Shown piece by piece: positions 49,955 to 53,415 of a DNA stretch of 64,000 bases. Each line of letters begins with the position of its first letter. Positions within the stretch are counted from its first letter, which is position 1. Both the position numbers and the translations under genes were made by a program. The notes below the pieces were generated by a model. The model worked only from the letters and a program-made list of their open reading frames with translations, ran no database searches and was not told the DNA's origin. This DNA is from Escherichia coli (lineage in GTDB: Bacteria; Pseudomonadota; Gammaproteobacteria; Enterobacterales; Enterobacteriaceae): NCBI RefSeq assembly GCF_016026235.1, contig NZ_CP065613.1. One strand, written 5' to 3'.

Positions 49955-51544
49955 ATGACGCAAACTCTGTTAGCGATTGAAGATTTGTCGGTGGGTTTTC
50001 GCCATCAGCAAACCGTACGTACAGTAGTCAATGATGTTTCACTACAGATTGAGGCTGGCGAAACGCTGGCGCTGGTGGGTGAGTCAGGTTCAGGCAAAAG
50101 CGTTACCGCGCTGTCAATTTTACGCCTGCTCCCTTCCCCGCCGGTTGAATATCTCTCCGGCGATATTCGTTTTCATGGCGAATCGCTGCTTCATGCCAGC
50201 GACCAAACGTTGCGCGGTGTACGCGGTAATAAGATCGCCATGATTTTTCAAGAGCCGATGGTGTCGTTAAATCCATTGCATACCCTGGAAAAACAGCTTT
50301 ATGAAGTGCTTTCACTCCACCGCGGGATGCGTCGGGAAGCGGCTCGTGGCGAAATTCTTAACTGCCTTGATCGCGTTGGTATCCGCCAGGCGGCAAAACG
50401 GCTGACAGATTATCCGCATCAGCTCTCCGGCGGCGAACGCCAGCGGGTGATGATTGCGATGGCGCTGTTAACGCGACCGGAATTATTAATTGCCGATGAA
50501 CCGACCACCGCACTGGACGTCTCTGTCCAGGCGCAGATTTTACAGCTGTTGCGCGAACTGCAAGGCGAGTTGAATATGGGCATGCTGTTTATTACTCATA
50601 ACCTCAGCATTGTCAGAAAACTGGCCCACCGCGTGGCGGTAATGCAAAACGGTCGCTGTGTCGAGCAAAATTACGCCGCTACGCTATTTGCCTCACCCAC
50701 TCATCCTTACACACAAAAGCTACTCAACAGTGAACCGTCAGGCGATCCAGTGCCGTTGCCAGAACCTGCCTCAACGTTGCTGGATGTTGAACAGCTTCAG
50801 GTTGCCTTCCCCATTCGCAAAGGGATTTTGAAGCGCATTGTGGATCATAATGTGGTGGTGAAAAACATCAGTTTTACGCTACGAGCGGGTGAAACACTGG
50901 GTTTAGTGGGCGAGTCCGGTTCCGGGAAAAGCACGACGGGACTGGCGCTGCTGCGACTGATTAATTCTCAGGGCAGCATCATCTTTGACGGTCAGCCACT
51001 GCAAAATTTAAATCGCCGCCAGCTGTTACCTATTCGTCATCGCATTCAGGTGGTATTTCAGGATCCAAACTCCTCGCTCAACCCACGACTCAACGTTTTG
51101 CAGATTATTGAGGAAGGCTTACGGGTTCACCAGCCGACGCTTTCTGCCACACAACGCGAACAACAAGTGATAGCCGTGATGCATGAAGTGGGATTAGATC
51201 CTGAAACACGCCACCGTTATCCGGCGGAGTTCTCTGGTGGTCAGCGACAACGTATTGCGATTGCCAGGGCATTAATTCTTAAGCCCTCGCTGATCATACT
51301 TGATGAACCGACATCATCACTCGACAAAACGGTACAGGCGCAAATATTGACGCTATTGAAATCATTGCAACAAAAGCATCAACTGGCCTATTTGTTTATC
51401 AGCCATGATTTGCACGTTGTCCGCGCGTTATGTCATCAGGTTATCGTACTGCGACAAGGGGAAGTAGTGGAACAAGGACCGTGCGCGCGCGTGTTTGCCA
51501 CACCGCAGCAGGAGTATACGCGTCAGCTACTGGCGTTGAGCTGA
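49955..51544 (+). CDS. yejF: Peptide ABC transporter ATP-binding protein (two ABC domains)
   Basis: ORF 49907..51544; conserved start MTQTLLAIEDLSVGF at ATG 49955; two Walker A motifs GESGSGKS. Confidence 0.9.
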   Translation: MTQTLLAIEDLSVGFRHQQTVRTVVNDVSLQIEAGETLALVGESGSGKSVTALSILRLLPSPPVEYLSGDIRFHGESLLHASDQTLRGVRGNKIAMIFQEPMVSLNPLHTLEKQLYEVLSLHRGMRREAARGEILNCLDRVGIRQAAKRLTDYPHQLSGGERQRVMIAMALLTRPELLIADEPTTALDVSVQAQILQLLRELQGELNMGMLFITHNLSIVRKLAHRVAVMQNGRCVEQNYAATLFASPTHPYTQKLLNSEPSGDPVPLPEPASTLLDVEQLQVAFPIRKGILKRIVDHNVVVKNISFTLRAGETLGLVGESGSGKSTTGLALLRLINSQGSIIFDGQPLQNLNRRQLLPIRHRIQVVFQDPNSSLNPRLNVLQIIEEGLRVHQPTLSATQREQQVIAVMHEVGLDPETRHRYPAEFSGGQRQRIAIARALILKPSLIILDEPTSSLDKTVQAQILTLLKSLQQKHQLAYLFISHDLHVVRALCHQVIVLRQGEVVEQGPCARVFATPQQEYTRQLLALS

Positions 51545-51547
51545 CGC

Positions 51548-51892
51548 TTAAAAAGGATTGTAGTTTGAAAAGGGTTCGGCAATTGCCACACCAAAATTTT
51601 TCAATCGGCATGTTGCAGCAAACTCGTCCTGGCGATTTACAAACAGGCACGGCTCACCTTCACACTCCAGCACCGAACATGGAACTTCGATGTCGCTTAA
51701 CGCCTGGCTTAGTTTATACATCACCGACCATGCATTATCACCATCCGGGCTAAGCAATTTAAGCGCCACCAGGCTGTTGTCACCGCACGGTCCATTTTGC
51801 GGAATCGGTTCAACCTTCGAACCTGCGAAACCAGCAGACCAGCGATAGTTCTGCGGCAGTCGATGGACGATTGAGAGTTGTAATGAAGTCAC
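51548..51892 (-). CDS. yejG: YejG, uncharacterised 114-aa protein
   Basis: [21 protein letters not shown]... (GTG start); convergent with yejF, stops 3 nt apart. Confidence 0.85.
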
Positions 51893-52190
51893 TTATTTTC
51901 CCCGGAAGCACATTCACCTCACAATTTGTTTACATCAATTTTAACACATCATCAACAATCCGTCTTTATACAGATCGTAAAGATTGATGCCTCGCCTGCG
52001 TGGCCTCTATGGCTCTGATTTAAGTAATATCTGCGGGCGTGGTCACGTTTGCGGGGCTATATGTACCCGTTTCTGCGATCTAACTCAACCTTTTTAACTA
52101 CAATGATGTGACTTTTTACATAAATTGATTTTACATAAAATAAACATATATCGGGGGAATGATAGATTTGTGGTTGACATGCATCAACAA

Positions 52191-52210
52191 AGGAAGCCTT
52201 TTAGCTTCCT
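52191..52210 (-). terminator. Possible terminator hairpin after bcr
   Basis: aggaagc-ctttta-gcttcct; on the minus strand followed by a weak UUGUUG tract 15 nt past the bcr stop. Confidence 0.4.
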
Positions 52211-52224
52211 CGTTGTGCAATAGA

Positions 52225-53415
52225 TCACCGTTTTTTCGGCCGACTGGCGTACAGACAGAAGAGAATGGAGCTGGTTGCGCAGAATGCAATTGACCAAATC
52301 ATCGGCCATGCAGAGTTAAAGGTCGCAAGAGAAAGCAATGCGCCAACAATTGCCCCTATGCCAAAACGGAAGGTTCCTGCCAGCGAAGATGCCGTTCCCG
52401 CCATATGGGGAAACTCATCAAGAATGACCGCCATCGCATTGGATGACACCATCGACACGCAGTCCACAAACGGCGCAACGCCAACCACCAGCGACCAGAA
52501 TCCCAGCCCCAGCAGCGCACTGATGACCATCCACGCTGCCATAATAAATTGTATCCACAACCCCGAGCGGAACATATTTAACGCGCCAATACGGCGGACG
52601 AAGCGGCTATTAAAGATGGTCATCACGAACAGGAAAACAATGTTTAGTGCAAAGTAATAACCAAAGTTTTCCGGCGCGACGTGGTTAATTTCAATGTAGA
52701 CAAACGGTCCGGCGCTTAAGAACGAGAACATCCCGGCAAAGCTGAAACCACTGGCCAGCATATAACTCAGGACACGCTTATGACGGAACAGCGCCGCAAA
52801 GTTACCAATAGTGGTACGAATGTGAAAAGGCTGGCGACGCTCCGGTGGTAAGGTTTCTTTGATCAGAAAGAAGATCATTGCCGAAGCCAGAATCGCCGCC
52901 ACGGCGAGGATCCAGAAGATGTAATGCCAGCTCAGCCACACCAGCACCCAGCCGCCAACTATCGGTGCCATCAGCGGTGCAATGGTTGTCACCAGCATGA
53001 CAAACGACATCATCCGCGAGAACTCTTCTTTAGGGTAGATATCACGCATCAAAGCGTTGATAACCACGCTGGCCGCAGCCGCCGCCAGCCCGTGGAAGAA
53101 ACGCATCACAATCAGCTGATCGATGGTTTGTGCCAACGCACACGCCACCGCGGCGGCGGCAAACACCAGCGTACCGCCAAGAACCACCGGCTTACGCCCG
53201 AAGCTGTCTGCCATCGGCCCGTAGATTAACTGCCCCAACGCAAAGCCCAGAATATAAGTACTGAGGGTCATCTGCGTACTGCCCGCCGGTACGCCAAACT
53301 GCGCTGAAATTACCGGTAGCGCGGGCAGATACATATCAATCGACAGCGGCATCAACATGGCCAGCAGGCCAAGGATAAAAACAATAGCAAACGACGAATG
53401 CTGTCGGGTGGTCAC
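52225..53415 (-). CDS. bcr: Bicyclomycin/multidrug efflux MFS transporter
   Basis: 396-aa 12-[28 protein letters not shown]... (GTG start). Confidence 0.9.

Follow-up and report, generated by a model that had tools for sequence, protein, structure and literature searches.

The spacer between bcr and yejG in Escherichia coli: an intrinsic terminator and a probable dual sigma-70 promoter control region

In the E. coli chromosome, the genes bcr and yejG are separated by a 332-bp spacer (positions 51893-52224 of the window, i.e. the whole 64,000-nucleotide stretch of DNA that was analysed), and the question this locus raises is what such a long, AT-rich interval does. A preliminary description had placed it between the yejG start and the bcr 3' end, a delimitation that proved exact, and had portrayed it as AT-rich DNA with phased A/T tracts, no open reading frame (ORF) over 60 aa and no annotated function, which could hold a nucleoid-protein-bound promoter or a small RNA. 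The flanking genes are arranged as follows, with yejABEF beyond them on one side and rsuA and radD on the other:

51892..51548, minus strand: yejG, with a GTG start at 51892
3' end at 52225, stop codon 52227..52225, minus strand: bcr

The A+T content of the spacer is 61.1%, compared to 49.4% for the whole window, which places it in the 98th percentile among 332-bp windows, and its largest ORFs span only 30-52 aa, with none of 60 aa or more; on both counts the initial portrayal was correct. The two strings it had quoted were located at 51939-51960 and 52114-52151. Phasing was confirmed for two A5 tracts (52091-95 and 52113-17), which are 22 bp apart within a 22-bp imperfect direct repeat, but not for the remaining tracts, spaced by 16 and 8 bp. 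The absence of annotated function holds for the genome annotation, as RefSeq carries no feature in the spacer of either MG1655 or strain RM8385, but not for the literature. To bring published data into one frame, window positions were taken as NC_000913.3 coordinates minus 2,226,345, or U00096.2 coordinates minus 2,224,367, and this frame was verified with the MG1655 annotation and the yejG coordinates printed in a transcription start site (TSS-seq) table. The spacer differs from that of MG1655 at a single base (51918) and was found in 5425 of 5426 complete E. coli genomes, i.e. it belongs to the core genome.

The evidence assembled here indicates that the spacer is most probably a composite region, consisting of the bcr terminator followed by a dual sigma-70 promoter control region of yejG. 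The comparative part of this evidence comes from 80 YejG-encoding loci, one genome per species, from which 77 spacers were aligned. In almost all 80 loci bcr lies directly upstream of yejG, the spacer usually measuring 310-345 bp, and the conservation profile across the 77 aligned spacers is sharply partitioned.

At the bcr end of the spacer, the following element was identified:

52185..52215, minus strand: bcr intrinsic terminator, a hairpin and U run kept in relatives

Its core stem, AGGAAGC / GCTTCCT (52210..52191), is extended by CAAC/GUUG and followed by the tail UUUGUUGAU, and folding gave the hairpin a free energy of -16.4 kcal/mol. A hairpin and U run directly after bcr was present in 59 of 59 distinct orthologous sequences, with stems as different as GGAAGC, GGGAGC, GGGGGC, AGGCCC, GGGGC and GAGCGC. 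Since the stems differ while the hairpin is always kept, the pairing is maintained by compensatory changes, which marks the element as an intrinsic terminator. A simple terminator scan did not flag this element, and the supplementary text of a 3'-end mapping paper holds no yejG entry. Transcription of bcr would accordingly stop at a structurally conserved intrinsic terminator; as the E. coli U-tail is no more than moderate, a fraction of transcripts may extend into yejG. In Salmonella enterica subsp. diarizonae and arizonae, an additional 45-60 bp segment between the bcr stop codon and the terminator, containing a long inverted repeat (GTGTCCCTCAA...TTGAGGGAC), lengthens the spacer to 378-394 bp.

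At the opposite end, transcription of yejG has been mapped experimentally. Chung et al. (2013) resolved two sigma-70 ChIP-seq events upstream of the gene, at window positions 51921 and 52065, and found corresponding starts by primer extension (PMC3798280); their primers map to 51863-83 and 52004-24, the latter (52004-52024) being yejGP2. One of the two promoters was detected again by TSS-seq (PMC3415461), and the promoter proposed in the preliminary description thus has published support. That description had also held that a lack of regulator occupancy would speak against its reading, which is contradicted by the published sigma-70, Fis and CRP data. The proximal promoter, P1, comprises:

51938..51946, minus strand: P1 extended -10 element TGtTAAAAT, recognised from the sequence, with no good -35
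51931..51932, minus strand: P1 start site, by primer extension and TSS-seq
51893..51930, minus strand: yejG 5' UTR from P1, a 40-nt leader

Primer extension placed the start at 2,276,299, corresponding to window 51932 (PMC3798280), and TSS-seq at 2,276,298 (51931, 38 reads), with a second 5' end at 2,276,287 (51920, 58 reads) (PMC3415461). The extended -10 element precedes the starts at 51932 and 51931 by 6-7 nt and is kept as TGTTAATAT or TGTTAAAAT across genera. The P1 region and 5' UTR are about 73% conserved overall, with CTTCCGGGGAAAA in the 5' UTR reaching at least 80-90%, and a conserved Shine-Dalgarno sequence (GGGGA, 51903..51899) is found 6 nt ahead of the GTG start codon. In close relatives, a small hairpin unsupported by covariation was predicted just 5' of the Shine-Dalgarno sequence. 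P1 is an extended -10 promoter producing the 40-nt leader.

The one base that distinguishes this spacer from that of K-12 falls in the same 5' UTR, where G replaces A at 51918 (GAAGTG to GAGGTG). Shortly downstream of it, at 51913, an ATG that is not conserved begins an ORF of 6 codons that runs up to the yejG GTG; this upstream ORF was rejected as a candidate element, being found in E. coli only. The gene itself is of unknown function (Pfam YejG family). It converges with yejF, the stop codons of the two genes (ending at 51548 and 51544, respectively) being 3 nt apart, which leaves no room for separate terminators, so that the 3' ends must overlap. A paper on the 'excludon' reportedly mentions yejG.

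The distal promoter, P2, lies 120 bp upstream of P1 and forms part of the most conserved portion of the spacer:

52057..52146, minus strand: conserved 90-bp block (P2 core and upstream region), from the alignment of relatives
52088..52083, minus strand: P2 -35 hexamer TTGAGT
52080..52077, within the 17-bp P2 -35/-10 spacer: Dam GATC site
52065..52057, minus strand: P2 -10 element TACATA(TAG), TACATATAG
52052, minus strand: P2 start site, by primer extension, 2,276,419 in U00096.2 (PMC3798280)
A5 at 52095..52091, minus strand: TGTAGTT and A5 tract, UP-like, abutting the P2 -35 in the position of a proximal UP subsite

The arrangement TTGAGT-17-TACATA is found 8 nt ahead of the start at 52052, and the sigma-70 event for P2 was predicted by dPeak at 2,276,432, i.e. 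window 52065 (PMC3798280). The 5' end of P2 is absent from the TSS-seq data of Kim et al. (2012; PMC3415461), and Shimada et al. reported a weak RpoH holoenzyme SELEX peak at window 52085 (intensity 3.1, cut-off 3.0). The hexamers match the consensus at only 4/6 and 3/6 positions, under the threshold of our consensus promoter scan, which called neither P1 nor P2. They are nevertheless invariant in relatives, Serratia and Erwinia included (-10 TAAATATAA). The Dam GATC site between them is likewise kept in nearly all species.

Across 76 other Enterobacteriaceae species, the 90-bp block showed 91% mean identity to E. coli, whereas the yejG coding sequence showed 78%, and 56% at third codon positions. 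When 3.9 kb of DNA (radD, rsuA, bcr, yejG and the end of yejF) were aligned for 25 diverse genera, it ranked as the best-conserved 90-bp window, at 0.896 compared to 0.56-0.63 for the divergent promoter spacer of rsuA and radD. It is single-copy in the 5425 E. coli genomes, with one place per genome and no second copy elsewhere in E. coli. The most distal module of the block is TGTTTATTTTATGTAAAAT, and its variable positions are grouped in two short spacers with no three-base period.

Upstream of the P2 core, at a position of interest for regulation, the block contains:

52122..52107, minus strand: CRP-like site TATGT-AAAAAG-TCACA, centred at -62.5 from the P2 start, 8/10

A class I CRP site has the consensus TGTGA-N6-TCACA and is centred near -61.5. 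In nearly all of 78 spacers the CRP-like 16-mer keeps the same 49-bp distance to the -10 anchor; 8/10 is the typical score, and nine species reach 9/10 with TGTGT-AAAAAG-TCACA. In E. coli the left half is poor (TATGT), and the N6 spacer equals the half-sites in conservation, a pattern that CRP alone does not explain. Among the CRP targets newly listed by Shimada et al. from SELEX is yejG, at a resolution too coarse to place CRP on the -62.5 site; it is through this site that we infer CRP to act. P2 would then be the regulated promoter of the pair, its core and some 90 bp upstream almost invariant across Enterobacteriaceae, with an A-tract UP-like element at the -35 and the CRP-like site at -62.5 in a class I activator position, and with A-tracts and Fis possibly helping to recruit RNA polymerase. 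Transcripts from P2 would carry a leader of approximately 160 nt whose sequence is not conserved.

Sites for other regulators were sought in the spacer by eye against consensus sequences, and none was established: a TyrR box lacks the invariant C, the core of an IHF site is unconserved, the 15-bp repeat period does not suit CpxR or OmpR, matches to the direct repeats of PhoP and ArcA were only partial, and PurR gave only a half-site (52053..52045) in the unconserved leader. A scan for Fis-like G-N13-C motifs returned one poor match. Within the yejG coding sequence, a predicted GalR site, GCGGAATCGGTTCAAC, was noted at 51799-51814 (+), a LacI-family-type operator whose sequence we take to resemble a Cra box. 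An intragenic Cra site in yejG has been reported in a Cra ChIP-exo study.

Expression of yejG responds to oxygen. Myers et al. (2013) recorded a sigma-70 peak at window 51986 with a value of 1461.69 under aerobic and 56.14 under anaerobic conditions, a 26-fold difference, along with a 4.0-fold change in yejG expression between the two conditions (PMC3688515). The latter was read as higher expression in air because the same sheet, named 'Anaero_over_Aero', gives acnB and lpdA values over 1 and the nap genes values under 1. In the literature, yejG has in addition been singled out as exclusively acid-induced. The anaerobic shut-off may operate through distal modules, bound by ArcA or another factor, rather than through FNR. 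The distal module TGTTTA-TTTTA-TGTAAA (52146-52130) presumably resembles an ArcA direct repeat with 11-bp spacing. Binding of ArcA there would suit an anaerobic shut-off that does not depend on fnr.

The role of FNR has to be considered since the region between the block and the terminator contains the following:

52174..52187, no strand: FNR-type palindrome TTGATgcatGTCAA, 9/10 to TTGAT-N4-ATCAA by pattern search
52147..52173, minus strand: spacer of variable sequence and constant length (27-28 bp, 50% mean identity) between the FNR-type box and the conserved block
52159..52187, minus strand: putative promoter P3, TTGATG-17-TATCAT, consensus hexamers only

The last of these has been assigned before, as Shimada et al. 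attributed a RpoD holoenzyme SELEX peak in the spacer to the hexamers TTGATG-17-TATCAT. In our consensus promoter scan, which returned three sites compared to 1.9 expected, P3 was the single intergenic match on the minus strand. P3 is probably not a real promoter: its -35 is the left half-site of the FNR-type box, its -10 is poorly conserved, and neither start-site study (primer extension or TSS-seq) reported a 5' end there. The 9-mer CATCAACAA (TTGTTGATG on the minus strand) was observed twice in the spacer, at 51950-51958 upstream of the P1 -10 and at 52182-52190 at the FNR-type box. The copy near P1 reads TTGTCAATG in other genera, and the repeat is therefore probably coincidental.

The strongest alternative to our reading is that the TTGAT-N4-ATCAA box is a working operator for FNR, or for another protein of the CRP/FNR family, which silences yejG without oxygen, the absence of a ChIP signal being due to the growth condition or to masking by Fis. 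We regard this as unlikely. The same site was predicted by Myers et al. (2013) as TTGACATGCATCAA at exactly 52174-52187 with a PatSer score of 14.14 (PMC3688515). Its conservation is considerable: a match of at least 9/10 was found in 64 of 78 orthologous spacers, E. coli among them at 9/10, and the box is perfect in 40 of the 78. The distance to the P2 module is fixed: of the 71 spacers in which the box scores at least 8/10, 65 have its centre 115-116 bp away from the P2 -10 anchor, and the box lies 66-67 bp upstream of the CRP-like site; in the single species with a variant distance (105 bp) the interval is shorter by one helical turn, so that helical phase is kept. The 26-fold lower sigma-70 occupancy without oxygen would also fit such an operator, and the authors of the FNR study list the site among good motifs lying under nucleoid-protein signal, since it overlaps Fis ChIP-seq enrichment (PMC3688515, including Table S6). 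Against this stand the lack of any FNR ChIP-seq peak at the site in anaerobic glucose minimal medium and the absence of yejG from the tables of genes that differ between the wild type and the fnr mutant (PMC3688515). The conservation of the left half of the box is moreover partly due to the terminator U-tail, which it overlaps, and several lineages have lost the box while keeping the 90-bp block. Finally, the centre of the box (52180.5) lies at -128.5 from the P2 start and -248.5 from that of P1, rather than at an activating or repressing position (about -41.5, -61.5 or overlapping the promoter), and no conserved -10 was found in the alignment at class II distance from it. To our knowledge, -128.5 fits no FNR activation or repression geometry, and we know of no factor that acts from there.

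A possible, though rather improbable, extension of these observations is that the near-invariant 90-bp block acts jointly with the TTGAT-N4-ATCAA box, which is phase-locked to it, as an operator of deep conservation, bound by at least one regulator that has so far not been linked to yejG. Such a regulator could respond to oxygen or acid, for instance, or could belong to the CRP/FNR family without being FNR itself. If true, this would explain why an FNR-consensus site with no ChIP signal in K-12 has been kept perfect, and at a fixed distance, across genera.

The small-RNA half of the preliminary description has a counterpart in the literature. Raghavan et al. (2011) reportedly found 'yejG-bcr' as a new sRNA by RNA-seq, it was seen again on tiling arrays, and Bilusic et al. 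(2014) describe an Hfq-enriched interval over 'yejG-bcr', which they call '5' UTR-yejG'. These reports would be accounted for by a free-standing, Hfq-dependent, trans-acting sRNA that starts at P2, ends before yejG and has its own targets, and P2, a strong conserved promoter, could drive such an RNA. The portion of the spacer in question is:

51967..52051, minus strand: P2 leader, 37% mean identity, variable length

A search of 51000-53000 against Rfam, with E-values up to 10, returned only chance matches to eukaryotic lncRNA, snoRNA and CRISPR-repeat models, far below the gathering scores. The terminator scan found no terminator-like site between 52052 and yejG, and the predicted fold of the leader was no more stable than that of shuffled sequences (z = -0.44, and -0.40 for a hypothetical longer leader), and it showed no stable hairpin with a trailing U run at the 3' end. 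When 76 leaders were folded as an alignment, no consensus structure emerged, and for 16 close relatives this yielded small hairpins only, without covariation. The low conservation and variable length (the leader is even partly deleted in some Enterobacter), together with the lack of a shared structure, also imply that there is no conserved seed. Given that no Rfam match, terminator, fold above shuffles or consensus structure was found, the reported sRNA and Hfq signal is probably the yejG leader made from P2, or a decay fragment of that leader, in line with the 5' UTR label given by the Hfq study itself; RefSeq carries no such RNA either. A separate conserved sRNA gene is in our judgement improbable, and of the small-RNA proposal what stands is the published RNA rather than an independent gene.

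A motif, (A/G)TGTAAGCGTTTTCTT, that is semi-conserved among Enterobacter, Klebsiella, Kosakonia and Leclercia was observed in their leaders, aligned near 51990-51975 (e.g. in loci L072, L074, L043 and L052). It presumably resembles an operator of the PurR or LacI family; the purF operator reads ACGCAAACGTTTTCTT. The motif is absent in E. coli, which has the PurR-like half-site CGCAAACGT at 52053..52045.

A further alternative is that the spacer is mainly AT-rich, curved DNA coated by H-NS or Fis, serving a silencing or structural role rather than as a specific promoter module. The A+T content, the two in-phase A5 tracts and the Fis ChIP-seq enrichment over the distal spacer (PMC3688515, Table S6) point in this direction, and to that extent the nucleoid-protein element of the initial proposal was upheld for Fis. 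It was not for H-NS, which is unflagged at the spacer both in the RpoD SELEX table and in Table S6 of the FNR study, yet flagged in neighbouring rows. Sigma-70 occupancy in air is high, the DNA belongs to the core genome (5425 of 5426 genomes) and was not acquired, and binding driven by composition would not need base-by-base conservation over 90 bp. We consider this reading very unlikely.

That the block instead encodes a small protein, from a 17-codon ORF (MFILCKINLCKKSHHCS, ATG at 52147, minus strand), can be dismissed almost entirely: the frame is open in E. coli, and most species begin it with ATG or TTG, but it has no Shine-Dalgarno sequence, is interrupted by a stop at codon 9 in Kosakonia and by a 1-nt deletion in Pseudescherichia vulneris, and lies upstream of the mapped P2 start with no known transcript over it. 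The variation is clustered in blocks rather than at third positions and the ORF is broken in other genera, which shows that the block acts as DNA and not as coding sequence.

The preferred reading, a bcr terminator joined to a dual sigma-70 promoter control region of yejG, makes the spacer a real but ordinary one, most of which is already documented experimentally though missing from the genome annotation. Two findings are new, namely how unusually deeply the module upstream of P2 is conserved, and the conservation, at a fixed distance, of an FNR-consensus box that shows no FNR ChIP-seq peak in E. coli K-12; they are a modest addition rather than a new kind of element. In practical terms the gain is small and consists in gathering scattered data into one coordinate frame. 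Nevertheless, yejG, a gene reported to be off without oxygen and specifically induced by acid, bears the most conserved 90 bp of its neighbourhood beside a conserved FNR-consensus site; finding the proteins that bind the block could give a first handle on YejG function, and the box may offer a clean case for studying why good FNR motifs stay empty in vivo.

Compared with known systems, the box resembles the FNR operators of class I and class II promoters in its motif (9/10 in E. coli and 10/10 in most other genera) and its fixed position, but differs from them in having neither FNR occupancy in ChIP-seq nor fnr-dependent expression, and in lying at -128.5. The yejG leader shares with Hfq-binding 5' UTR and leader RNAs its length, its origin at an upstream promoter, its report as an RNA-seq sRNA and its Hfq enrichment, while no attenuator or terminator, conserved sequence or structure, or known target was found in it, unlike in those RNAs. 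The bcr terminator has the GC-rich hairpin, the U run after the stop codon and the compensatory stem substitutions of Rho-independent terminators in enterobacterial spacers, whereas in E. coli its U-tract is broken up (UUUGUUGAU) and at the same time forms the left half of the FNR-type palindrome. The control region as a whole is reminiscent of class I CRP tandem promoters, of the lac P1 type or of the acs P2 type with distal sites and Fis: two sigma-70-bound starts are separated by 120 bp, TGTGx-N6-TCACA has its centre approximately 62 bp ahead of the distal start, an A-tract adjoins the -35, a Fis signal is found upstream, and CRP binds the region in vitro. It departs from these promoters in its weak CRP half-site in E. 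coli and in an N6 conserved like the arms, and as invariance extends to another 30 bp upstream and to the entire -35/-10 spacer, additional contacts along the P2 module are implied.
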